A stretch of DNA of 64,000 nucleotides from Dissulfuribacterales bacterium (GTDB lineage Bacteria > Desulfobacterota > Dissulfuribacteria > Dissulfuribacterales > DYLC01). Below, piece by piece: positions 9,884 to 53,380 of the stretch. Within the stretch, counting starts at the first letter, position 1; each line of letters opens with the position of its first letter. A model generated the notes under the pieces. That model did not search any database. It was not told where the DNA came from and worked only from the letters and a program-made list of their open reading frames with translations. A program made the position numbers and the translations under genes. The stretch spans positions 11,782 to 75,781 of the forward strand of contig JBEULL010000030.1 in the NCBI GenBank assembly GCA_041287365.1, given 5' to 3'.

Positions 9884-9911
9884 AAATAACCTTGAAACAT
9901 TTAGTGAACCT

Positions 9912-10036
9912 TGATGAAATCGTGAAAAAGTAATGTCGAATGTTTAATGCTGAATGTTGCATTAATGTAATAGTCAATTATATGAAGTGAATTAAACCAT
10001 AATTAAGCATTAAGCATTACAACTTAAACATTTTTA
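9912..10036 (+). repeat. Intergenic TIR/heptamer element copy A (internally deleted, right end decayed)
   Basis: Left end TGATGAAATCGTGAAAAAGT, then AATGTCG AATGTTT AATGCTG AATGTTG, a spacer ending GTGAATTAAACCAT, and an inverse arm AATTAAGCATTAAGCATTACAACTTAAACATT. Confidence 0.75.
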
Positions 10037-16345: not shown

Positions 16346-16732
16346 ATGCTTCGTTCCATGCTCAAATCCAAGATACACAGGGCCACGGTTACACAGACCG
16401 CCCTGCACTATGAAGGCAGCCTATCCCTTGACAAGGACCTGATAGAAGCGGCCCAGCTACTTCCCTTCGAGCAGATCATGGTCTATAACATCTCAAACGG
16501 CGAACGCTTCGACACCTATGTGATAGAGGCGGAAAGGGGTTCCGGTACGGTATGCCTGAACGGCGCAGCTGCCAGAAAAGGTGAACCCGGAGACCTCATC
16601 ATCATTGCATCCTACGGCCTTTTCGACAAACAGGAGTGCCTCACGGGGGAAAGCCGCATAGTAGCTGTGGACAGCAATAACCGAATAACTGACGTCATGA
16701 CACACAACTGGTCGCATTGGAGTGCCAAATGA
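16346..16732 (+). CDS. panD: Aspartate 1-decarboxylase
   Basis: MLKSKIHRATVT, YEGS autocleavage site, NGERFDTY, LNGAAAR. Confidence 0.97.
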   Translation: MLRSMLKSKIHRATVTQTALHYEGSLSLDKDLIEAAQLLPFEQIMVYNISNGERFDTYVIEAERGSGTVCLNGAAARKGEPGDLIIIASYGLFDKQECLTGESRIVAVDSNNRITDVMTHNWSHWSAK

Positions 16733-18168
16733 ACAAGACCTATTCAAAAAGCGAGATAAAGCAGCTCAAAAAACGACTTCTTTCCGAAAGACAAAATATC
16801 TGGTCTCAACTCACGGATGACGAACGCAAAAAGGCCATGGATTATGCCGTTGACTACATCCATTTCCTGAGCGAGGTCAAGACAGAACGGGAAGCCGTGA
16901 AATTTATGGCAAAAACAGCTCAGGAGGCCGGTTTTGAGCCGATTACCAAGACTAAAGGGGCAAACAAACTCTTCTGGCAAATAAATGGAAAGGCGGCGGC
17001 CCTCGTTCACTTGGGCAAACAGGACATACTGGACGGCATTCACCTCATCGCATCCCACATCGACGCACCCAGACTGGACCTGAAACAGAATCCCCTTTAT
17101 GAGGAACTGGATATGGCCTATCTGAAAACCCACTACTATGGCGGGATAAAGAAATTCCAGTGGCTTGCCAGGCCGCTGGCCATACACGGCGTTGTCCTGA
17201 CGCAGACCGGCAAAACCATCGAGCTCGTGCTTGGAGAACATACCTCCGATCCCGTCTTCACCATCAACGACCTGCTTCCACACCTAGCCGGCAAGGTGCA
17301 GGCCGACAAGAAACTTTCCGAGGCCATACCAGGCGAAAAACTTAATGTACTTTTCGGCGGCCTGCCGATTTTGGGGCCGGAAGATATGAAAGAAACGGTA
17401 AAGCTGAACATCCTCAGAATGCTGCACGAGCAATACGGCATCACGGAAGAGGATTTCATCAGTGCGGAGATCGAGATTACGCCGGCAGGCCCTGCCAGGG
17501 ACGTGGGGCTGGATCGGGCATTTGTGGGCGGATATGGTCAGGATGACCGCATATGTGCATACACCTCCATGAAGGCCATTCTGAATACGCAAAGGCCTGC
17601 CCACACCTGCATCGCCCTTTTCATGGACAAGGAAGAGATCGGAAGCGACGGCAATACCGGCGCCAAATCCCGCATCCTCGAACTGCTGGTTCACGACCTT
17701 CTGAATTACATAGGCAAAAAGACAAACCCTGACACCCTGTTACAGATATTCCGCAATTCCAGGGCCATCAGCGCCGATGTAACCGCCGGCATCGATCCGG
17801 ATTATCAGGAGGTACACGAAAAGCGCAACGACGCCCTTATGGGATACGGCATCTGTCTCACGAAATACACCGGTTCACGCGGCAAATACGGCGCCAACGA
17901 CGCCCACGCCGAGTACGTAAACTGGATTCGACGCACATGGAACCAGGCTAAAATCATCTGGCAGACAGGCGAGTTAGGTCGTGTGGACGAAGGCGGAGGA
18001 GGAACCGTGGCCAAATACCTCGCCTATCACGGCATGAGCGTGGTGGATGCAGGACCGCCTCTTTTGAGCATGCACTCTCCCTTTGAAATAGCACACAAGG
18101 CAGATATTCTGATGACACACAAGGCATACGAAGCCTTTTATGCAAGCTCAATAAAAACGGCCTCATAA
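16729..18168 (+). CDS. M18-family aminopeptidase
   Basis: SHIDAPRLDLK, THYYGGIKK, YGQDDR, DKEEIGS, SMHSPFE. Confidence 0.93.
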   Translation: MNKTYSKSEIKQLKKRLLSERQNIWSQLTDDERKKAMDYAVDYIHFLSEVKTEREAVKFMAKTAQEAGFEPITKTKGANKLFWQINGKAAALVHLGKQDILDGIHLIASHIDAPRLDLKQNPLYEELDMAYLKTHYYGGIKKFQWLARPLAIHGVVLTQTGKTIELVLGEHTSDPVFTINDLLPHLAGKVQADKKLSEAIPGEKLNVLFGGLPILGPEDMKETVKLNILRMLHEQYGITEEDFISAEIEITPAGPARDVGLDRAFVGGYGQDDRICAYTSMKAILNTQRPAHTCIALFMDKEEIGSDGNTGAKSRILELLVHDLLNYIGKKTNPDTLLQIFRNSRAISADVTAGIDPDYQEVHEKRNDALMGYGICLTKYTGSRGKYGANDAHAEYVNWIRRTWNQAKIIWQTGELGRVDEGGGGTVAKYLAYHGMSVVDAGPPLLSMHSPFEIAHKADILMTHKAYEAFYASSIKTAS

Positions 18169-18342
18169 AAAATCATTATCGGTGAATGGCTATGACAAAA
18201 AGCGCCGAATGCAAGACGAGCAAATCAATGTTGAATGTTAAATGCTGAATGTTGAATTAAGGTAGATTTACCACAATTAAACACTAAAAATTCAACATTA
18301 AACATTTATAATTGCAGTCGGTGAATTTTTGTGGTTCCATCA
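18155..18342 (+). repeat. Intergenic TIR/heptamer element copy B
   Basis: Ends AAACGGCCTCATAAAAAATC ... GAATTTTTGTGGTTCCATCA (12/20 inverted); four AATGYTR heptamers at 18227-18254, inverse arm 18275-18306; TCAATAAAA repeated at 18148 and 18340. Confidence 0.9.
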
Positions 18343-18360
18343 ATAAAAGGGGTAACGAAC

Positions 18361-43392: not shown

Positions 43393-43524
43393 GTAACCTC
43401 CTTATCTACTAAAAAATTAAAAATATACTCAAAGAAACCTCGAAAAATTAAAGATTCCCTAAAAATACCCCTGTTCCACGGTCATCGCCACAGGTAATTG
43501 CAAAAAACTAACAGATCTCATCAG

Positions 43525-43695
43525 TGACGGTTTAGTAAAAAGTCATTTTGGTAAATGGCTAAGCAAAAAACGCCCAATACAAGGCGCGCAAATCCTACTT
43601 GTTAATGTTGAATTGAGATGAATTTAACCACAATTTAACATTCAACATTCAACATTGTTAACTACAGCAGTTGGCGAATTTTTACGACACCGTCA
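43525..43695 (+). repeat. Intergenic TIR/heptamer element copy C
   Basis: TGACGGTTTAGTAAAAAGTC ... GAATTTTTACGACACCGTCA (17/20 inverted); TAACATT CAACATT CAACATT arm; terminal TCA is the mfd stop. Confidence 0.93.
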
Positions 43696-46600
43696 CAAGT
43701 TCTTTATCATCTGCACTGTATCCAATACCGCATTCAAACCCTTACCCTGCAAAGGGACCATCAGACGACCGTCCGGCAGCAGACGCCAGGTCTTGTGCTT
43801 GGGCAGGGCCGATAGCACGCCATTTAGATTTACAGGCCCCTCCGGACCATATGTGAGGACAAGCATATCCTGCTCCTTCACTCTGCTTTTGTCCAGACGG
43901 CTACAGTTCATTGCAACCAAGACCCGCTTTATTGCCATAAGCTGTAAGAGTGTGGTAACCTCTTGAGGATATTCACCGAAACGATCCGTCAATTCCCGCT
44001 CGAACTCGGCAGCCTCATCCTCGCTCTCTATACGGCTGAGTCTGCGGTACAGTCTGAGCCTTTCTTCGATATCTGGGCAATATTCCTCAGGGATGAAGGC
44101 AGAGACCCCGAGGTTGACCTCGGGATCGAACACCCGCTTGATAGGCTGCCCTTTGATCTCCTGCACCGCCTCTTCCAGAATATTCAAGTAAAGCTCATAA
44201 CCCACCTCGGCTATCTGACCCGATTGCGACATGCCTATGATATTACCGGCCCCCCGCATCTGCAGGTCTTCCATGGCCAAAGCGAAACCGCCGCCAGAAG
44301 AGATGGAATCCATCACCGCCTTGATGCGCTTCAACGCCCCTTTTTCTGTGTGTGCACCGGGCGGCACAAAAAAATAGGCATAGGCCTGCTCGGTGGAACG
44401 GCCCACTCGGCCTCTAAGCTGATAGAGCTCGGCAACACCAAACAGATCGGCCCTGTCTATAAGGATGGTGTTGGCCGCAGGTATATCGATACCCGATTCG
44501 ATGATGGCGGTGCAGACCAGACAATCGATTTCACCACGCACGAACCTAATCATTACATCCTCCAACTGGGACGCATCCATTTGACCATGGGCCACCTCCA
44601 CTCTTATACCAGGCACAAGGGTTCTTACATGCTCCGCCAACCGCTCGATACCCTGTATGCGGTTTCGCACAAAAAATATCTGGCCGTTTCGTTCCAGTTC
44701 CCTTTTAATGGCCTGAGAGATGATGGTATCGTCAAACTCTGCCACAAAGGTCTTGATGGGCAGACGGTCCTGAGGCGGCGTTTTTATTATGGACATATCC
44801 CGTAAACCCAGCAAGGAAAGCTGTAATGTGCGTGGAATGGGTGTAGCGGTCAGGGTCAGACAATCTATGTGCTGTTTGAGCCCTTTTAGTTTTTCCTTGT
44901 GTTTTACGCCGAAACGGTGCTCCTCATCCACAACCAACAGGCCAAGCGACCTAAACTGCACATCCTTCTGAAGGAGTCTGTGAGTCCCTATGACTATATC
45001 AATCTGGCCGCTTGCCAGACCTGTCAAGGTCTCTTTTATCTGCCTTGGAGACTTTAATCGGTTAAGCGCCGCTATCCGCACGGGAAATTTCTCGAATCTT
45101 GCCTTGAAACTGCGTTCGTGCTGTTCCGCCAACAAAGTGGTGGGCACGAGCACGGCCACCTGTTTGCCATCGGAAACGGCCTTGAAGGCAGCCCGCATCA
45201 CCACCTCGGTCTTGCCGTAACCCACATCCCCACAGATCAATCGATCCATGGGCACCGGACTCTGCATGTCTTTGAGCACATCCTCGATGGCGCTGGCCTG
45301 ATCCGGAGTCTCATCATAGGGGAAGGCCGCCTCGAACTGCCTGTACATGGCGTCCGGCTCCGAAAATACGATACCCTCCTGCACTTGCCTCCTTGCATAG
45401 AGCTCCACCAGTTCATGGGCTACCTCATAGACAGCCTTTCGCACCTTCTTTTGTTTGAGCTGCCAGGCCGAACCTCCCAGTTTATCCAGAGCTGGTTCTC
45501 GGCCATCGATGCCCACATACCTCTGAACAAGTCCCAGACGGTCCACGGGCAGGTACAGCCTGTCACCGTCTCTGTATTCGATATAAAGGAACTCGCCCTG
45601 CACACCTTGCAGGTCCATACGCACCAATCCCTTGTAACGACCCACACCATAATCCCTGTGCACTATCAGACTTTCGTGAGTGATATCCAGGGATACGACA
45701 TCGGCCAATTTGGTCCTTTTATCAGCTTTTCGTGTAGCCTTCTTGCCTTTTGCAAAGGGCCTACCTCCAAAGAGCTCATCCTCGGAGATGACGATCAATT
45801 CAGCAGCCGGCGAATAAAATCTTTTGGAAGGACTGCCCACAAAAAGAGATATGGCGCCGGCAGGAGGTGCATAGTCCAAGATTTCGTTTTCAGCGCGCAG
45901 GGAAATCCGTGATGTCTTTGGTTCCTGCTCCGCGTAATAACCAAGAAGCGACAACAACCTGTCCCTGTGCAGAATGGAGCGTGCAAAAACCGCCACACGT
46001 TTTCCCTCACGGGCCCATTCAGCCAGAGTATGCCATACAGGCCGCAGGAGTTCTTCTCCCACATGATGAAACACGGGCACAGGCAGGGACGGAGTAACCA
46101 CCAGCGATTCAATGGCATGAACCCGAGATGTCGAGTGGCACTGCAAGACCTGCTCCCCTTGGGCGATTTTTGCCTCACCTTGCCTCTCGATTCCAATCGC
46201 TGAAAAACTTAACGTTGCGCAGGCATGCACTCGATTGAAAACCACGTCAGGCGGCAAAACCAGGGCAGACAATTCGGACAGGACGTGAAAGGATGCACGG
46301 GCGGATTCATAGGCATGCCTTGCAGTCTCCCAAAAGGCATACAAGCCATTGTACACCTCTTCATATCCATCCATGACAAATAGAGTATGCTCAGGCAAAT
46401 AATCCAAAACAGTGCTGTTGCCGTCATAAAAAATTGGCAGTAAAGATTGAGCCCCTTCCCAGAACCGCCGTGACTCCAAAAGCTCCATCCACTCGGTCAA
46501 CTGACGGGCAGGCCAATCCATGAGGCGGGCCTGCTGAATCATGGCATCCTGAACCTTTTTTATCAAATCATCCTCGAATAACAGCTCCGAACAAGGTAAC

Positions 46601-47274
46601 ACAGTGAACTCTGTAAGGGGATCACTGGACTTCTGAGTTAAGGGGTCGAAATAATGCATCTCCTCCACAAAATCCCCAAAGAAATCCAGACGTACAGGAA
46701 ATAGGCTGTTACAGGGATAAACATCGAGGATTCCGCCACGCAAACTGAATTGTCCGACAGACTGGACTATCGGTACGTTTTCATAACCCACCTTCAGCAG
46801 CCAGGACACCAGAGCATCCCGATCCGTTTCCTCACCGGTCTGAATATATTCCACATTCCTGCTCAGAACAGTCCTGGGCACAGTGGGCTCACATAAGGCC
46901 TGAACAGGAACAACGAGCAGAAAAGGCTCACGGCTTACAGCCAGTTGATACAATACCGAGATGCGCTGAATGACAGTCTCAACGGCCGGAACAATGGGAA
47001 CAAAAGGCAGATTTTCATGAGAAGGAAACAACAAGACAGGATAATCCGTAAAACATGCGAGGTCGGCACACACCCTTTCAGCATCTTTCAAACCATTCGT
47101 CAACCATACCAGGGGTCGATGTATCTTCTGAAAGATATGGGCCGCGCACCAGGCTGCAGCGGCCTTTTCCATGCCTGTTACAGAGACCTTGACATCTCCG
47201 TGACCCTGCAATAAATCCACTAAGGAATCAAACACACAATCCGCCTTTGTATGAATAAACAACAAGGCAGACAC
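43693..47274 (-). CDS. mfd: Transcription-repair coupling factor
   Basis: UvrB-like N-terminus, VHRDYGVG, CGDVGYGKTEV, DEEHRFG, TATPIPRT, QLRGRVGRS, TRCF domain. Confidence 0.97.
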   Translation of the reverse strand: MSALLFIHTKADCVFDSLVDLLQGHGDVKVSVTGMEKAAAAWCAAHIFQKIHRPLVWLTNGLKDAERVCADLACFTDYPVLLFPSHENLPFVPIVPAVETVIQRISVLYQLAVSREPFLLVVPVQALCEPTVPRTVLSRNVEYIQTGEETDRDALVSWLLKVGYENVPIVQSVGQFSLRGGILDVYPCNSLFPVRLDFFGDFVEEMHYFDPLTQKSSDPLTEFTVLPCSELLFEDDLIKKVQDAMIQQARLMDWPARQLTEWMELLESRRFWEGAQSLLPIFYDGNSTVLDYLPEHTLFVMDGYEEVYNGLYAFWETARHAYESARASFHVLSELSALVLPPDVVFNRVHACATLSFSAIGIERQGEAKIAQGEQVLQCHSTSRVHAIESLVVTPSLPVPVFHHVGEELLRPVWHTLAEWAREGKRVAVFARSILHRDRLLSLLGYYAEQEPKTSRISLRAENEILDYAPPAGAISLFVGSPSKRFYSPAAELIVISEDELFGGRPFAKGKKATRKADKRTKLADVVSLDITHESLIVHRDYGVGRYKGLVRMDLQGVQGEFLYIEYRDGDRLYLPVDRLGLVQRYVGIDGREPALDKLGGSAWQLKQKKVRKAVYEVAHELVELYARRQVQEGIVFSEPDAMYRQFEAAFPYDETPDQASAIEDVLKDMQSPVPMDRLICGDVGYGKTEVVMRAAFKAVSDGKQVAVLVPTTLLAEQHERSFKARFEKFPVRIAALNRLKSPRQIKETLTGLASGQIDIVIGTHRLLQKDVQFRSLGLLVVDEEHRFGVKHKEKLKGLKQHIDCLTLTATPIPRTLQLSLLGLRDMSIIKTPPQDRLPIKTFVAEFDDTIISQAIKRELERNGQIFFVRNRIQGIERLAEHVRTLVPGIRVEVAHGQMDASQLEDVMIRFVRGEIDCLVCTAIIESGIDIPAANTILIDRADLFGVAELYQLRGRVGRSTEQAYAYFFVPPGAHTEKGALKRIKAVMDSISSGGGFALAMEDLQMRGAGNIIGMSQSGQIAEVGYELYLNILEEAVQEIKGQPIKRVFDPEVNLGVSAFIPEEYCPDIEERLRLYRRLSRIESEDEAAEFERELTDRFGEYPQEVTTLLQLMAIKRVLVAMNCSRLDKSRVKEQDMLVLTYGPEGPVNLNGVLSALPKHKTWRLLPDGRLMVPLQGKGLNAVLDTVQMIKNL

Positions 47275-47321
47275 ACGGGTCTGCCTTGCAACAAAAATTT
47301 TTTACAGGTTACCACCAATTT

Positions 47322-47501
47322 TGATTGTCTCGTAAAAAGTCATTTTGGATGGATGGCTAAACAAAAAGCGCCAAATGCAAGGCACGCACATTAATGTAAC
47401 ATATTAAATGTTGGACTAAGGTTAATTTATCACAATCAAACATTAAAAATTTAACATTAATCATTTGCAATTGCAGTCATCGAATTTTTGCAACGCCATC
47501 A
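47322..47501 (+). repeat. Intergenic TIR/heptamer element copy D
   Basis: TGATTGTCTCGTAAAAAGTC ... GAATTTTTGCAACGCCATCA (14/20 inverted); shared ATGGCT..CAAAAAGCGCCAAATGCAAGGC segment; degenerate heptamer arms. Confidence 0.9.
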
Positions 47502-47504
47502 GTT

Positions 47505-48155
47505 CTATGGCCTTAAAAAGGCTGACCAGGCACCGGATTCATTCTGCAGCTCTATCCAACCGCCCTTGCCCAACATGCCTGGATTTATAATGACGGTTCT
47601 GCCGATTCTGTCCAATGACCTGGCCTCATGAATGTGACCGGTCAGACAGAAATCGGGCTGAATACGCTCTATGAACTCGCGGACCGCCTTGCTGCCCACA
47701 TGCATACCATTTGAGATTCTATCCGCGGCAGTATCGTAAGGTGGGGCATGGGACACCATGATCTTGATGCGGGCATGACTTACTGTTGCATGACCCTGTT
47801 CCAATAATAGGCCAATTTCATCCTCCGAGAATTCCGTAGGTGTGTTGAAAGGTGTGGGATTGGAACCGCCTACTCCAAACACCCCCACATCTTCAAATAA
47901 AAAACCCCTGCCATGCAGATTGATGCCCAATTCATTCAAATAGGTCATGACAGAGACATCATCCAGATTGCCCGGCTGGGCATATATGTTGGGATTTATA
48001 TCGCGAATAGCAGAGATTACTTGATGAGCTGCTTCATGATTTCCAAAATTGGTCAAATCTCCTGTCACGATTACCATATCAGCACCTGCAAGGCCGGAAA
48101 CGGCCTGCAATGCACCATATTCCATGTGAATGTCACCAAACGCTATGATTTTCAT
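47505..48155 (-). CDS. Calcineurin-like metallophosphoesterase
   Basis: GDIH, TGDLT, PGNLD, SHAPP, TGHIHE, NPG; GGAGG SD before MKIIAF. Confidence 0.92.
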   Translation of the reverse strand: MKIIAFGDIHMEYGALQAVSGLAGADMVIVTGDLTNFGNHEAAHQVISAIRDINPNIYAQPGNLDDVSVMTYLNELGINLHGRGFLFEDVGVFGVGGSNPTPFNTPTEFSEDEIGLLLEQGHATVSHARIKIMVSHAPPYDTAADRISNGMHVGSKAVREFIERIQPDFCLTGHIHEARSLDRIGRTVIINPGMLGKGGWIELQNESGAWSAFLRP

Positions 48156-48187
48156 ACTACCACCTCCTGTTTTCCAATACCCGCGGC

Positions 48188-48580
48188 TCATGATGCCCTG
48201 TCCAACTGAATGATCAACGGAATGACATTTACCTTGGGTGCATATGGTGTGGTCCGGCCCAATGACCACTCCACTACACGATAGCCGTTTCCCAGCCGCT
48301 GCCCTATTTTCTCAACCGTTCCCTTGATATCTATGACGGGATGACGCTCCATAACCTGCGGCAGTCCATAAGTCAGACTGCATGCCATGCACTTGCCCGG
48401 CCGCTCCGTCAGCCGGTACTCCAGTACCAGTCTGCTTTTTTCCGCTTCAAACGAAACAAACGCCAAGGCAATATCGAACGCCCCCTCCTCGGCACCGCCA
48501 TAAAGGGCATCGAAGAACTGGTCGTCCCTGCCCCTTGGAAAAAGTTCCTGCAAAAAACCCTCTGTAAAAAGCTCTTTCAT
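48188..48580 (-). CDS. Conserved hypothetical protein with CxxC
   Basis: 130 aa; FFDALYG.AEEGAFDI and RPGKCMACSLTYGLPQV..RHP motifs recalled from deltaproteobacterial hypotheticals. Confidence 0.8.
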   Translation of the reverse strand: MKELFTEGFLQELFPRGRDDQFFDALYGGAEEGAFDIALAFVSFEAEKSRLVLEYRLTERPGKCMACSLTYGLPQVMERHPVIDIKGTVEKIGQRLGNGYRVVEWSLGRTTPYAPKVNVIPLIIQLDRAS

Positions 48581-48783
48581 GACTTATCCTCTCGATGGCA
48601 TTTTTTATGCTTTGACAAAATAGAATATCCGTGTTTTTAATCGAAAAAACAGGAACTGGTCAACCCCCAAAGAAATAAAGGCGAAACTCTCGAAAAAATA
48701 ACCCCATATTCCACATGACAACCGCCCATAACATACAAAAATGTCGAGCAGGAAAGAAAAATGTCGGGACCAGGCAAACTGCT

Positions 48784-49170
48784 ATGAAATTCATCTTTGT
48801 GACCGTGCTGGCGGCCGGATTCCTATTGTCTCACACATTCGGTTCCTTTGCAGAGGAACAGCCAGCAGGGCAAAAAGACTCAGGTCCAGCACAGCTTCTG
48901 CCGGTGAACACCCTGACAAAACCTGCTGAAAAGACGCAGGAACCGGACAATGTACAGATGCCTGACAAAGACCCTGAAGATACCTCATGGCAGAGCATAA
49001 AAATAAACAAATCAGCAAGTGATGCACCCGCAGCAAACAACAGTTGCCCCTGTGACAGCACTGGAGTGCGTTCACGGCTGATTCGCATGGGAGATATGTC
49101 AGAAAACAGCGGCCCAGGCTATGGCGGCAGGGGAATGAGGGGTGGAGGCATGGGCAGAGGGAGACGCTGA
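48784..49170 (+). CDS. Secreted low-complexity protein with Gly/Arg-rich tail
   Basis: Signal peptide MKFIFV..SFA; CPC; GPGYGGRGMRGGGMGRGRR; TTGACA-N18-TTTAAT upstream at 48612-48641. Confidence 0.6.
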   Translation: MKFIFVTVLAAGFLLSHTFGSFAEEQPAGQKDSGPAQLLPVNTLTKPAEKTQEPDNVQMPDKDPEDTSWQSIKINKSASDAPAANNSCPCDSTGVRSRLIRMGDMSENSGPGYGGRGMRGGGMGRGRR

Positions 49171-49182
49171 CCTTCCCTTATG

Positions 49183-49809
49183 TCATCCCCACAATCTTGC
49201 AGTTAGGTTGGCCACATACTCCCCTTGAAAACGTGCACCTGCCAGTTCGTTTTCACTGGGCATACGCCTGCCGTCCTCGCCTGCTATGGTGGAAGCCCCG
49301 TAAGGTGAGCAGCCCGTCACCTCTTTCGAGGTCATCTGCGCCGAAAAGGTATATGGAAGCCCCGCGATTATCATACCGTGGTGCAACAGAGTGATATGAA
49401 AACTCAGAATAGTGGACTCCTGACCACCGTGCTGAGTGTTGGAACTGGTGATCACGCTGCCCACCTTGCCCACCAATGCACCTTTTTGCCAGATGTTACC
49501 GGTGGAGTCCAAAAACTGACGCATCTGACCGCACATATTGCCAAAACGCGTAGGGGTTCCGAAGATGACGGCGTGGGCATCACTCAATTCATTTAAACTG
49601 CAAACAGGTATCACCTCCTGTTCTTTTTGGGGCTGGACTGCACCCATCTTTTCAATGACCTCGCCTGGCAAGGTTTCCGGCACCCTGCGCATAACCGCCT
49701 CCACACCGGTAACCCGTTGAACCCCCTCCGCCGCTGCCTGTATCATACGATACACATGACCATACAGAGAATAATAGACCAGCAAGACCTTCACTGATGA
49801 AACACCCAT
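49183..49809 (-). CDS. wrbA: NAD(P)H:quinone oxidoreductase WrbA
   Basis: YYSLYGH, GTPTRFGNM, QHGGQEST, SPYGAST. Confidence 0.95.
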   Translation of the reverse strand: MGVSSVKVLLVYYSLYGHVYRMIQAAAEGVQRVTGVEAVMRRVPETLPGEVIEKMGAVQPQKEQEVIPVCSLNELSDAHAVIFGTPTRFGNMCGQMRQFLDSTGNIWQKGALVGKVGSVITSSNTQHGGQESTILSFHITLLHHGMIIAGLPYTFSAQMTSKEVTGCSPYGASTIAGEDGRRMPSENELAGARFQGEYVANLTARLWG

Positions 49810-49820
49810 GAGCTGCCTCC

Positions 49821-51113
49821 TTACAATCGCCAATACCGGCAATCTGAAAACTCCTGTCTTTGAAACAAGCCCTTGACATCCACCACAACACCGCCGTTTT
49901 TACCCTGATTCTTCAACATATTTCTGATGAAACCCGAGCCGGCCTGCTTGAAAACACCGTGGGCCACGGCGATAATCACTCCATCCTGTTCCACGGGCGG
50001 CTCATGCAATAACTCTATGGAATACTCACGTTTTGCATCCTCCCTGTCCGCAACCGGATCAAAAACCACTGGTTGCATGCCATATTCCCGCAATTCATTC
50101 AGGATGTCCACCACCCTTGTATTGCGTATATCAGGGCAATTCTCCTTAAAAGACAGGCCCAGAACAGCCACCCTGGCACCGTCCACACGTACTCCAGCGC
50201 GAATCAACTCCTTTACGGCACACTGAGCCACATAAGTACCCATGGAATCGTTTATACGCCTACCTGCCAAAATCACCTCCGGATGATAACCAAGCTTTTG
50301 TGCACAGTGAGTAAGATAATAGGGATCCACGCCGATACAGTGCCCTCCCACCAATCCAGGCTTAAACGGAAGAAAATTCCATTTGGTTGAAGCTGCCTTT
50401 AATACCTCTTGAGTGTCCAGGCCCAGCCTGTGAAAGATGAGGGCCAACTCGTTCATAAAGGCTATATTCAGGTCCCGCTGCGCATTCTCGATAACCTTGG
50501 CCGCTTCAGCGGTCTTGATTCCTAAAACAGGATAAACACCTGCTGTCGCCACGAGCGAATAAATACGCTTCAACCGCTCCAGTATCTTCTCATCCTGAGC
50601 AGCCACAATCTTTACGATAGTTTGCAGAGTGTGTTCCATATCGCCTGGATTGATGCGTTCGGGCGAATAGCCCAGATAGAAATCCTTACCGCAACGCAGG
50701 CATGAAACCTCTTCCAGAACAGCAGCGCAGACGTCCTCCGTGACACCCGGATATACAGTGGACTCATACACCACCACAGCGCCCTTCTGAAGATGATGGC
50801 CGATGAGACGTGAAGCTGAAATCAGATGTGAGAGGTCAGGCTGCTTGCTGGCGTCGATGGGAGTCGGCACAGCCACGATAATCACACTGGCCCTGCGCAA
50901 TTGGGCCGCATCGGTGGTAAATGTAAGATGCCCTGCACTAGCAAAATCCTGTTGCGATACCTGACCGGTGGTATCCTGACATGCCTTGTAACGGCGAATC
51001 TTTTCTTCGGACAGGTCAAAACCTATAGTCTCGATCTTTTTGCCGAAAGAAACAGCAAGAGGGAGACCGACATATCCTAAACCAACTACGGCGACTGTCT
51101 CATGAACATTCAT
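49821..51113 (-). CDS. Nucleotide-sugar (UDP-HexNAc) dehydrogenase, WbpO/TviB family
   Basis: GLGYVGLPLA, YESTVYPG, YSPERINPGD, GGHCIGVDP, FKENCPDIRN. Confidence 0.95.
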   Translation of the reverse strand: MNVHETVAVVGLGYVGLPLAVSFGKKIETIGFDLSEEKIRRYKACQDTTGQVSQQDFASAGHLTFTTDAAQLRRASVIIVAVPTPIDASKQPDLSHLISASRLIGHHLQKGAVVVYESTVYPGVTEDVCAAVLEEVSCLRCGKDFYLGYSPERINPGDMEHTLQTIVKIVAAQDEKILERLKRIYSLVATAGVYPVLGIKTAEAAKVIENAQRDLNIAFMNELALIFHRLGLDTQEVLKAASTKWNFLPFKPGLVGGHCIGVDPYYLTHCAQKLGYHPEVILAGRRINDSMGTYVAQCAVKELIRAGVRVDGARVAVLGLSFKENCPDIRNTRVVDILNELREYGMQPVVFDPVADREDAKREYSIELLHEPPVEQDGVIIAVAHGVFKQAGSGFIRNMLKNQGKNGGVVVDVKGLFQRQEFSDCRYWRL

Positions 51114-51128
51114 TTACAACTCACCTCT

Positions 51129-51313
51129 TGCTGATTTCATAAAAAATCATTACCAGGAATGGCTGAACGAAAACTGCCAAATGCAAGGTGCTCAAATCAA
51201 TGTTAAATATTGAATGGTTAATGTTGAATTAAGGCTAATTTAACCACAATTTAACATTCACCATTAAAAATTAAACATTATTGTGCAGTCGGCGAGTCTT
51301 TGCGATATCATCA
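51129..51313 (+). repeat. Intergenic TIR/heptamer element copy E
   Basis: TGCTGATTTCATAAAAAATC ... GAGTCTTTGCGATATCATCA (14/20 inverted); AATGTTA AATATTG AATGGTT AATGTTG arm and TAACATT CACCATT AAAAATT AAACATT arm; terminal TCA is the FmdB-gene stop. Confidence 0.92.
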
Positions 51314-51574
51314 ACCCTTGCTATGCCCTGGTAGCTCTATGGTGGAACAACTGCCCGAGCCGCAGGAGTGGTGCTGGACTGTAGGCATACCGGAGGGACT
51401 GGTGACACGACCCGGAGCACCATCCGCTACAGCCATATTGGAAGCGCTCATAAGTTTTTGCACCTCAGGGCTCTGGCATCGAGTGCATTTGATATTTGCA
51501 ATTTCGTCTTTCTGCATCACCAATACCTCAAAAACATGATCACAACTGCTACAACGGAATTCATGTATAGGCAT
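51311..51574 (-). CDS. FmdB-family zinc-ribbon protein
   Basis: MPIHEFRCSSC.HVFE...CTRCQS..V.KLMS; AGGAGG SD. Confidence 0.9.
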   Translation of the reverse strand: MPIHEFRCSSCDHVFEVLVMQKDEIANIKCTRCQSPEVQKLMSASNMAVADGAPGRVTSPSGMPTVQHHSCGSGSCSTIELPGHSKG

Positions 51575-51583
51575 AATACCTCC

Positions 51584-52450
51584 TTATTGCTCTATCGCCG
51601 CGGCCTTGGGAATCTCCTTTTTCAGCCTGTTTTTTTTGTAACATACAAACACCAGATTCTCCACACCAAAGGCGATGGATGCCACGAGAATAATCGTAGC
51701 ACCAGTAGATATATTATAAAGATATGATAACCAGATACCACATATAGTAAAGACCAGGCTGAAAATACTTGAAAGCAACATCATACTCCAGATGGAACGG
51801 CAGTACTTCTCGGCCATGTGTGGTGGAATGGAAAAAAGAGCTATCACCAGAAGGAGCCCCACTGCACGCATGGTAATCACCACTGCACAGGTCATAAGCC
51901 CCACCAGCAAAAAATGCAAAAAAGTAACCGGCACCCCCTTAAGCAAGGCCATTTCTCTGTCATAGGAGAGCAACACAAATTGATTCCTGAACAAAAACAA
52001 GGCCAGCAGAATCAAGACATTCATGCCAGCCATCAGCCACAGCTCAGAGGTGGGAACCGCCACCATGCTGCCGAAGAGATAGGTCATGAGATCCACATTA
52101 TAGCCAGGGGTCAGATCCAATAATATGATACCTATAGCCATGCCGCCTGACCAGATGGCTCCGATGATGGCATCCGCCCTGTCCTGTTTTTTAAGAGTGA
52201 AAAACGCCATCAAAAAGGCCATGAAAAGCGAAAAACACAGAATGACTGGAAACGGTGACAATGCCAGAAAAAAGGCCAGCCCGACCCCTCCATAGGCCGC
52301 ATGGGCTATGCCTCCGGTGAACATCACCATTCTGTTCACAACGGCAAGGCTGCCCATGGAACCACAGGCCACACTGCACAAGATGCCGGCCAGTGCGGCG
52401 TTACGCATAAAATCAGGCAGTTCACGAAAAAATGCGGTTATATCAAGCAT
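51584..52450 (-). CDS. znuB: Zn/Mn ABC transporter permease
   Basis: GIAHAAYGG, DLMTYLFGS, VGLLLVIALF.IP; start ATG at 52450. Confidence 0.92.
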   Translation of the reverse strand: MLDITAFFRELPDFMRNAALAGILCSVACGSMGSLAVVNRMVMFTGGIAHAAYGGVGLAFFLALSPFPVILCFSLFMAFLMAFFTLKKQDRADAIIGAIWSGGMAIGIILLDLTPGYNVDLMTYLFGSMVAVPTSELWLMAGMNVLILLALFLFRNQFVLLSYDREMALLKGVPVTFLHFLLVGLMTCAVVITMRAVGLLLVIALFSIPPHMAEKYCRSIWSMMLLSSIFSLVFTICGIWLSYLYNISTGATIILVASIAFGVENLVFVCYKKNRLKKEIPKAAAIEQ

Positions 52451-52603
52451 GATGCCCTCACAAAAAGTCATTGTCGTGAATGGCTACGGCAAAAAACGCC
52501 AAATGCAAGGCGTGCAAATCCCGAGAAACGAGGTGTACTCAAGGTACGCAGTTACGAGGGATGCAGCACAACACAGCAGCGGCGGGTTTTTGCGATGCCA
52601 TCA
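52450..52603 (+). mobile_element. MITE-like element copy F (GC-rich core, no heptamers) with flanking direct repeat
   Basis: TGATGCCCTCACAAAAAGTC ... GGGTTTTTGCGATGCCATCA (15/20 inverted); same left 70 bp as B-E; ATCAAGCATGAT at 52442-52453 and 52600-52611. Confidence 0.85.
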
Positions 52604-53380
52604 AGCATGATTCAAACCGTTGCCGTTGAAATGCAGATGCGTCAACAACTCCACAGGACAGACCTCTTTGGCAGGACATTTGAACGAAGATACAGGGCCT
52701 CCTCTTTCGGGAGAGACATGGAGATAAAGGGTATGGTTAACACAGGCTATCCGTTTGATGCCCTTGGAAAAAAGGTCCAAATCATGACTCACCATGACCA
52801 GAGTGGTTTTCCTGTTGATATCGGCGAACAACTCCGTAAATTGCATCTTACCTTTTACGTCGATATTGGCCGTTGGCTCGTCCAGGAGCAGAATTTCGGG
52901 TCTGTTAACCATTGCCCTGGCCAAAAGCGCCCTCTGCACCTGGCCGCCTGAAAGCTCTTCCATTCCGGCTTTTTTGCATTCTGCCAGACCGGTCAACTCC
53001 AGCGCCTCTTCAGCGGCACGGCGGTCATTTTTATCATAACCTCTTACAAAAAAACCGGATTTGAGACGACCGCTCAAGACCATATCAAACACGGTGATAG
53101 GAAAGGACGTGTTATACGAAGGCCTTTGCGGCATATAACCGATTTTTGAACGCGCCTTTTCCGGTGGCATGCCAAACACGGTCACAGTCCCCTTGGATGG
53201 GGATACAAACCCGAGAATGAGCTTGAGCAGTGTGGTCTTGCCACCTCCATTCGGCCCCACTACAGCCAGAAAATCCCGAGAAGGCACTGCAAGATTGATG
53301 TCTAATAGAATGGGTGTCTGCCCATAAAAAAAACAGACATTCTGAAATGCTATGACCGGTTCATCAGTTAGCATTTTCAT
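52601..53380 (-). CDS. znuC: Zn/Mn ABC transporter ATP-binding protein
   Basis: GPNGGGKTT, IGYMPQ, LSGGQVQR, LDEPTANID, VSHDL. Confidence 0.93.
   Translation of the reverse strand: MKMLTDEPVIAFQNVCFFYGQTPILLDINLAVPSRDFLAVVGPNGGGKTTLLKLILGFVSPSKGTVTVFGMPPEKARSKIGYMPQRPSYNTSFPITVFDMVLSGRLKSGFFVRGYDKNDRRAAEEALELTGLAECKKAGMEELSGGQVQRALLARAMVNRPEILLLDEPTANIDVKGKMQFTELFADINRKTTLVMVSHDLDLFSKGIKRIACVNHTLYLHVSPERGGPVSSFKCPAKEVCPVELLTHLHFNGNGLNHA

Follow-up and report, generated by a model that had tools for sequence, protein, structure and literature searches.

A heptamer-array hairpin beside thyX in a Dissulfuribacterales genome is probably a gene-less intervening-sequence-type cassette captured by a miniature transposable element

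What is a hairpin made of tandem heptamers doing in the narrow gap between two housekeeping genes? The question is raised by a stretch of 64,000 nucleotides from a Dissulfuribacterales bacterium (assembly GCA_041287365.1, contig JBEULL010000030.1, positions 11,782 to 75,781), which was analysed at its full length and is called the window below. It is ordinary chromosome, with ribosomal proteins, rpoA, mfd, thyX, panC/panD, an RND (resistance-nodulation-division) efflux operon and znuACB. Immediately before thyX it carries an inverted array of heptamers around a short loop, here called copy B because the same design occurs elsewhere in the window. Our answer is that this hairpin is probably a decayed, gene-less cassette of the intervening sequence (IVS) type, a member of a widespread selfish palindrome family that has been captured by a miniature inverted-repeat transposable element (MITE). 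It is not a local regulatory site. The features of copy B are:

18227..18306, plus strand: hairpin of copy B, 4 + 4 inverted heptamers around AATT-AAGGTAGATTTACCAC-AATT
18156..18341, plus strand: composite element B, 186 nt, in which the heptamer hairpin forms the core of a MITE-like frame bounded by terminal inverted repeats
18150..18155, no strand: left target-site duplication of B, AATAAA, 6/6 match
18342..18347, no strand: right target-site duplication of B, AATAAA, followed by the ribosome-binding site and start codon of thyX

The left arm of B reads AATGTTG, AATGTTA, AATGCTG, AATGTTG and then AATT; the loop AAGGTAGATTTACCAC follows, and then a second AATT and the four heptamers of the right arm. 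This is how the initial annotation, made from the letters of the window, had described it, and the description is accurate for the rest of the set: copies A, C, D and E share the plan, and the loops quoted for them are correct when checked against the sequence. The unit can be written AATGYTG / CARCATT, and the arms meet the loop at a conserved junction, GAATTAAGG ... CCACAATT. Positions 1-3 and 6 of the heptamer are invariant, while positions 4, 5 and 7 are free to change, with no mirroring from one arm to the other; the same variants occur in both arms, each about as often in one as in the other. As had been claimed, the 7-bp register holds throughout, with 2-5 units per arm.

The hairpin is not a rarity in its own genome, and the pattern exceeds chance by a wide margin. 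The analysed genome (G000; 2.1 Mb in 34 contigs, about 49% G+C, completeness 97.8%) gave 32 non-overlapping matches at E <= 0.01 to a profile of the hairpin alone. Judged by eye, the outer frame borders about 18 of these on one side or both, and about 14 stand free of it. Motifs were counted in this genome by Hamming scans, and the 11-mer AATGTTGAATT occurs 32 times, against about 1 expected from length alone. The arm-plus-junction query of B was compared with 31 related genomes, G000 counted in, and matched eight of them; these include G014 (37 matches) and G012 (13), from other families, and there is no match in the two same-genus genomes (G001 and G002, which were used for the comparison of orthologous sites) or in the one same-family genome. 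A scan of public genomes for the junction (one genome per species, pattern AATNNTNAATGTTGAATTAAGG) returned at least 112 loci. Among the matches listed, most have the form (AATGYTG)n-GAATTAAGG-loop-CCACAATTC-(AGCATTC)n; the taxa are Deltaproteobacteria/Thermodesulfobacteriota (metagenome-assembled genomes), Nitrospirota, Acidobacteriota, Binatia, Clostridia and Bacteroidota; the right junction lies no more than 230 nt away in 54 of 114, and the loop is no longer than 45 nt in 45 of 114. Counts of the left junction in five other genomes are 30-82 per genome, compared with 0-2 for a reversed control pattern. The plasmid collection gave no hairpin match. A literature search found no paper on dispersed AATGTTG-type hairpins, and two 14-mers matched no paper.

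The loop is conserved among the window copies, as had been reported for them. In a subfamily of 19 public copies among the matches listed, the arms vary and the 23-nt loop TATATGTCTTTTAAATCTTCTTC hardly changes. The loops of G000 differ from it and have the form T-N-AATTTA-A; the junctions are identical. In the commonest public subfamily (for example L031, L052, L065, L086 and L120) the loop, AAGG-N5-ATG, opens short open reading frames (ORFs) that run through the right arm (MSFKSS..., MFFKSS...), perhaps from the remnant of a start site, and the G000 loops have no such ATG. A hairpin of the form (AATGTTG)5 ... (CAACATT)4 with a different loop also lies between two genes of an unannotated gut phage-like contig (MT836699.1, 6080-6200); it was not used.

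The connection to a gene comes from relatives of the analysed genome. In G014, at C40:2623-3100, a frameshifted PF05635 gene lies between AATGYTG arms with the junction GAATTAAGG as here; its left arm is AATGTTG-AATGCTG-AATGCTG-AATGTTG-AATTAAGG and its right arm CCTTAATTC-AGCATTC-AACATTC. Another broken PF05635 copy, on contig C74 of G012, lies between AAATGGT arrays, and other PF05635 genes are flanked by inverted arrays of unlike heptamers (GTTAGCC, AGGYTGA, GTCAGAW and others). Surveys for PF05635 and for the frame covered 69 genomes of the order. PF05635 genes occur in 33 of them, and in all five of the hairpin-rich genomes tested, with 2-11 genes each. There is a strict period-7 array near the gene at 10 of 20 loci in five genomes, and no more than 200 nt from the gene end at 12 of 25 loci taken one per genome. 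Such arrays occur at 1.71 per kb near PF05635 gene ends and at 0.11 per kb further off, a 16-fold difference. Of the PF05635-matching proteins tested, two match TIGR02436 'four helix bundle protein', with a weaker match to the diversity-generating retroelement protein Avd. PMC3936711 reports PF05635 genes that lie inside cas loci. The initial annotation had stated that similar arms flank small four-helix-bundle or GxxExxY genes in other bacteria. The first half of this statement is borne out by the gene in G014 and by the enrichment of arrays. The second half was not confirmed in the genomes examined: PF13366 (GxxExxY) genes have a strict period-7 array at 0 of 7 loci.

The hairpin of B is also the core of a larger element. 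The frame around it is shared by five copies in the window, and a sixth copy (A) has a remnant of it:

9911..10033, plus strand: copy A, a long-loop hairpin after a remnant of the frame's left terminal repeat; in the RND efflux operon, between the outer-membrane-factor gene and the membrane-fusion gene
43526..43694, plus strand: copy C, frame with heptamer hairpin, 169 nt; mfd lies on one side and a pyridine-nucleotide disulphide oxidoreductase gene on the other
47323..47500, plus strand: copy D, frame with degenerate heptamer hairpin, 178 nt; flanked by a metallophosphoesterase gene and mfd
51130..51312, plus strand: copy E, frame with heptamer hairpin, 183 nt; upstream of a UDP-glucose-dehydrogenase-family gene
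52451..52602, plus strand: copy F, frame as in B-E, 152 nt, with a G+C-rich core and without heptamers, duplication AAGCAT 6/6; in the znuA-znuC-znuB operon, where it separates the znuC stop from the znuB start
43570..43587, minus strand: terminator-like hairpin and T-run of C, in the frame's middle module; a consensus match only, with a stem of 5-6 pairs
47368..47385 and 52496..52513, minus strand: the same terminator-like feature in D and F respectively; a consensus match only

All six copies are intergenic, between protein-coding genes, and none is in helix 25 or 45 of 23S rRNA. A repeat search sorts them into families D2-D4. A profile made from B-F finds the window copies at E values of 1e-37 to 1e-54 and about 20 more full or partial copies on other contigs. 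G000 as a whole has about 25 full or partial copies of the outer frame, 21 of them full-length. The left end of the frame is the terminal repeat GATGGTCTCGTAAAAA and the right end a terminal repeat (...TTTTTGCGACGCCATC), giving terminal inverted repeats GATGGNNTCGNAAAAA; the inverted ends GATGGTCTCGTAAAAA / GATGGCGTCGCAAAAA (reverse complement) are present in 21/21 full-length copies. The ends of B itself are degenerate, with 5 and 4 mismatches to the consensus. Inside the left end there is a middle module, where the terminal repeat recurs as an inner copy along with a small hairpin (CGCC-AAATGCAA-GGCG), and then comes the core. When the aligned full-length frames were sorted by eye according to core type, the core was of the heptamer type in 11 (169-203 nt) and of the G+C type in 10 (152-158 nt). 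Chimeras of the two types were seen at C27:94350, C29:233370 and C9:154645. In all 11 heptamer-core frames the hairpin has one orientation, which suggests a single capture followed by spread. Seven public loci among the matches listed also have the hairpin framed by inverted repeats, in their case GATTCCGCTGAAAAA ... TTTTTGAGCGGAATC, in elements of 164-178 nt, so that a hairpin inside a frame is not peculiar to G000. The frame with the G+C core matches 9 of the 69 genomes of the order and is multicopy in G003, G005 and G008; it was not found in G001 or G002.

The frame is flanked by direct repeats of the kind left by transposition. A 6-bp flanking repeat matches at 6/6 positions in 8 of the 21 frames and at 5/6 in another 5, and none of 63 shifted controls reaches 5/6. 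Mobility of the frame, by cut-and-paste or copy-in by an inferred transposase that makes a 6-bp duplication, is well supported.

Site B could moreover be compared with its unoccupied state. In G002, whose flanks are 87% identical, the site is empty and the target motif is present once, as GATAAA (...CCCGATAAAGGGGTAAC...); only a few bases there separate the end of the aminopeptidase gene from the thyX start codon. This aminopeptidase-thyX junction is split by element B in G000. The M18 aminopeptidase gene (16717-18168) takes its last four codons and stop from the first 13 nt of B (18156-18168), and the G002 protein has a different end. In sludge and biofilm metagenomes, contigs of a relative about 93% identical run from the aminopeptidase gene into element B and end there, and the summed depth over element B is about 26 times that of the flanks. 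Together these indicate that site B is occupied in this population and that the repeat is present in many copies. The hairpin is missing from both G001 and G002 at site A, at C23:35397 and at C29:141305, which means that the free-standing hairpins and copy A are insertions too. At sites A and B (loci L154 and L151) G001 has another repeat, of about 100 nt with the core GATTTCTCGCTTYGCTCGAAATGAC, and G002 has neither, so that the small elements gathered at these gene junctions differ from species to species.

The reading that we prefer can be set out as a series of steps. Fuller relatives of the palindrome carry a small four-helix-bundle gene in the loop (PF05635/TIGR02436, the S23p of 23S rRNA intervening sequences), and G000 no longer has this cargo gene. 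In B, C, D and E the hairpin is now the central module of a 150-200-nt non-autonomous transposable element, probably through one capture by the frame and the spread of the composite. The frame would be moved by a transposase acting in trans, and the MITE inserts into very short spacers between close, same-strand housekeeping genes. When transcribed, the imperfect stem may be cut by RNase III in the way that rRNA intervening sequences are; an RNase III gene is present in G000. By this analogy, such cleavage is the likeliest effect at the molecular level, and if it occurs, the transcripts of the flanking genes would be uncoupled rather than regulated by design. Because the window copies have no PF05635 gene, they are filed as gene-less derivatives and not as full members of the IVS-type cassettes.

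A number of results weigh against this reading, and the first concern the stem. The hairpin of B folds at -16.5 kcal/mol on the plus strand and -24 kcal/mol on the minus strand (z -3.1 and -4.9), and for B and E alike either strand gives a good fold (-16.5 to -24 kcal/mol, z -3.1 to -5.0, with E at about -5). Taken whole, element B folds as a single long and imperfect hairpin whose tip is the heptamer hairpin (-42/-43 kcal/mol, z -3.0/-4.7). The fold of C is however marginal (z -2.4 and -1.3), and D folds no better than shuffled sequences (z -0.9 and -1.6), so that a conserved RNA or single-stranded DNA stem is not demonstrated. Nor was there covariation between the arms, which the initial annotation had suggested looking for. 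A strict parser retrieved just 7 hairpins from G000, and the covariation tests were therefore based mainly on public copies (63 elements among the matches listed, giving 134 heptamer pairs; the innermost left heptamer of public copies is set by the search pattern, and the innermost pair was dropped from this test). Pairing at the variable positions 4, 5 and 7 is 0.562, compared with 0.569 +/- 0.020 in shuffles, and with wobble allowed 0.659 compared with 0.668. Exactly mirrored heptamers are somewhat enriched (35/134 against 23.7 +/- 4.1, a value reached by 16 of 2000 shuffles). In a gapless alignment (A2) of 19 public copies among the matches listed, 93.2% of cells pair, compared with 92.7% when shuffled; 134 of 500 shuffles pair as well as the observed alignment, and the covariation score is 0.068 against 0.064. 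Pairing falls to 26-51% when the partner is slid by 1-3 columns. The arms are thus complementary because their fixed letters, AAT..T(G), are complementary, and not through compensatory change.

The other points of this kind concern the gene and the transposase. The search for filled versions of the hairpin succeeded in the relative G014 and failed in G000, which has no PF05635 or PF13366 gene at its completeness of 97.8%; the cassette link therefore comes from other genomes, in which only one filled copy has exactly these arms. An array on both sides of the PF05635 gene was found at only 3 of the 20 loci (a fourth by motif regular expression) and at 1 of the 25. The free-standing hairpins have no recognisable target duplication. 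Processing by RNase III is argued from rRNA intervening sequences only. As for the frame, no credible pair of its ends 0.5-5 kb apart, as expected of an autonomous element, occurs in G000, and a transposase-bearing parent was not found in the complete genome G008 either. G008 has the only long variant of the frame (C1:1297650-1298704, about 1.05 kb), in which about 870 nt of foreign DNA follow the left end; its ORFs are broken (60-92 aa) and it resembles a decayed insertion sequence.

The preferred reading, of a gene-less IVS-type palindrome inside a MITE, can be compared with systems already described. According to PMC4990558, the IVS in the 23S rRNA of Coxiella burnetii has an S23p ORF that is undergoing decay, a 28-bp terminal stem and a tandemly repeated heptamer, GACAGAT, with a copy number that varies from strain to strain; it is excised by RNase III, and the authors call the origin of such intervening sequences unclear. 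As described there, it has in common with the elements studied here a stem of terminal inverted repeats, tandem 7-base repeats of variable number, and an S23p/PF05635 gene in the loop of the fuller forms, the ORF decaying while the stem persists; it too is regarded as selfish. The differences from that account are that the present elements lie between protein genes and not in rRNA, have no ORF in G000, use the heptamer AATGYTG instead of GACAGAT, and are dispersed in about 32 copies. RNase III cleavage is reported as a result for Coxiella in PMC4990558, whereas here it would follow by analogy.

The frame has the properties of a bacterial MITE: terminal inverted repeats, a duplication of fixed length, no coding capacity, tens of copies, an intergenic position near gene ends, and presence or absence that differs between related species. 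Bacterial MITEs include Correia/NEMIS of Neisseria, ERIC, RUP and Nezha. Unlike these, the frame has no parental insertion sequence in the two genomes searched (G000 and G008), it has two interchangeable cores and chimeras of them, and the terminal repeat is doubled in tandem at its left end. BOX of Streptococcus pneumoniae and the BIMEs (bacterial interspersed mosaic elements) and REPs (repetitive extragenic palindromes) of enterobacteria are also mosaic intergenic repeats, with variable internal units and hairpin potential, and are targets of insertion sequences. The elements described here share with them the modular mosaic build, the variable unit number, the hairpin potential and the hosting of other insertions, but differ in the size and sequence of the units. 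REPs are tied to RAYT transposases. A REP/BIME system with a RAYT was considered and rejected for the present repeats, since G000 has a lone Y1 transposase fragment below threshold, on another contig and unlinked to the repeats. This was the single match to Y1_Tnp in G000 (22.5 bits, cut-off 23), at the end of contig C20, with no hairpin or frame there. The ORF concerned (C20:3176-3609, minus strand) resembles a Y1 (IS200/RAYT-type) transposase in its C-terminal half, below the Pfam cut-off, and its N-terminal part is a tandem repeat that translates to PLPHAV x8. An integron cassette array was likewise rejected, because the copies are dispersed over many contigs and no integrase or recombinase family was found among the 60 window ORFs scanned.

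A heptamer-armed design of this kind bears on the unexplained origin and spread of rRNA intervening sequences and of the very large 'four helix bundle protein' family. Here it is dispersed between ordinary genes, with a junction that is common across phyla; in G000 its gene is lost, and comparison with the empty site of a sister species allows the insertion of the surrounding MITE to be dated. This gives concrete material for asking by what route the arms spread, and whether they are acted on by RNase III or by a protein that reads heptamers. A broader proposal, which we consider doubtful, is that an undescribed class of mobile element, found across phyla, has the arrays and the junction as its working ends and also seeded the rRNA intervening sequences. 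The arrays would then be read unit by unit by a protein, for which a four-helix-bundle pentamer is the obvious candidate; the arms would outlive the protein by means of the MITE, and the loop, near-invariant next to hypervariable arms, would be the site of recognition or cleavage.

Three other explanations were weighed. In the first, a protein that recognises AATnnTG units would bind the arrays as phased sites on double-stranded DNA, with rows of protomers converging on the loop, and the host or the element would use them for regulation, nucleoid structure or transposition. Ribbon-helix-helix repressors, for example, read 7-bp heptads. The pattern of invariant and free, unmirrored positions fits a constraint on each unit better than it fits pairing, and the shared set of variants in the two arms and the fixed register at differing unit numbers point the same way. 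No candidate binder was identified, however, and G000 lacks the cassette protein. The copies lie in both orientations with respect to genes, beside unrelated housekeeping genes, and their absence from the sister species at the same sites means that no conserved host function is tied to a site. We consider this explanation unlikely.

The second is that the hairpins are empty attachment sites, the loop being the recognition site for site-specific insertion and excision of cassettes. The loop does take inserts, and they are placed directly after GAATTAAG(G). At this point stand the PF05635 gene in G014, a 141-nt MITE at C29:224048-224188, small inserts at several public loci among the matches listed, and, as a reverse nesting, a G+C-core frame in the loop of a short heptamer hairpin, after GAATTAAG, in G008 (C1:324463-324680, L007). 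The conservation of the junction across phyla and the near-invariant loop of the 19 public copies described above would also suit such a site. On the other hand, the 141-nt MITE has generic A+T-rich 4-bp targets and only 3 of its 20 copies are in hairpins; the hairpins are A+T islands in a genome of 49% G+C, which is explanation enough for MITE insertions in the loop. There is no recombinase gene near the window copies and no cassette gene in G000, and the heptamers that flank PF05635 genes elsewhere are quite unlike these, which points to arms and gene moving as one unit. The hairpins, absent from the sister species, have themselves inserted recently and show no sign of waiting for a cassette. 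The proposal of the initial annotation that the loop is an insertion site is therefore upheld as to the inserts and not as to their specificity, its suggestion of empty cassette sites finds no support, and we regard the attachment-site explanation as highly improbable.

The third, that the element encodes or forms a structured regulatory RNA (leader, terminator/antiterminator or small RNA) for the adjacent genes, is suggested by the intergenic position, by the significant folds of B and E, by the minus-strand terminator-like hairpin and T-run in 3 of the 4 frames of 43400-52700, and by the innermost heptamer pair, where T is opposite G in 15 of 19 copies among the matches listed, a U-G pair tolerated in RNA on one strand only, but it has hardly any chance of being right, given that Rfam 15 has no match at gathering score in the whole window, that the arms do not covary, that A and B are oriented with the transcription of neighbouring genes and C-F opposed to it, that the neighbours are functionally unrelated, and that the element is missing from the sister species at the same sites. 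Permissive Rfam matches for B and F were to eukaryotic microRNA and long non-coding RNA models (E 0.2-0.8) and were dismissed as chance level. Promoters of the sigma-54 or sigma-70 type in the frame were also rejected: their spacing is wrong by eye, and there are 13 sites compared with 10.7 +/- 3.3 in shuffles. A short minus-strand ORF from the left end of the frame (MTFYE...) is a by-product of the terminal repeat, and stops after 4-13 codons in most copies.

The 141-nt MITE represents a third repeat family of this genome. It has terminal inverted repeats GGGAAGTCCCAAAAAT with GGGAAGTCCC ends and a 4-bp A+T-rich target duplication. Its 20 copies include 28- and 40-nt mini forms that consist of the two ends only, and further examples are at C9:141025-141165 and C27:95591-95731; none is in the window.

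The repeats have practical consequences for annotation. Assemblies break at them, with contigs that end inside; they separate close same-strand genes, and they alter gene ends, as with the aminopeptidase at B. Copies C and F also reach into the neighbouring genes. The mfd stop (43693-43695) overlaps the last bases of C and the znuC stop (52601-52603) those of F, and in each case the stop codon is held by the terminal ...ATCA of the element, read on the minus strand.

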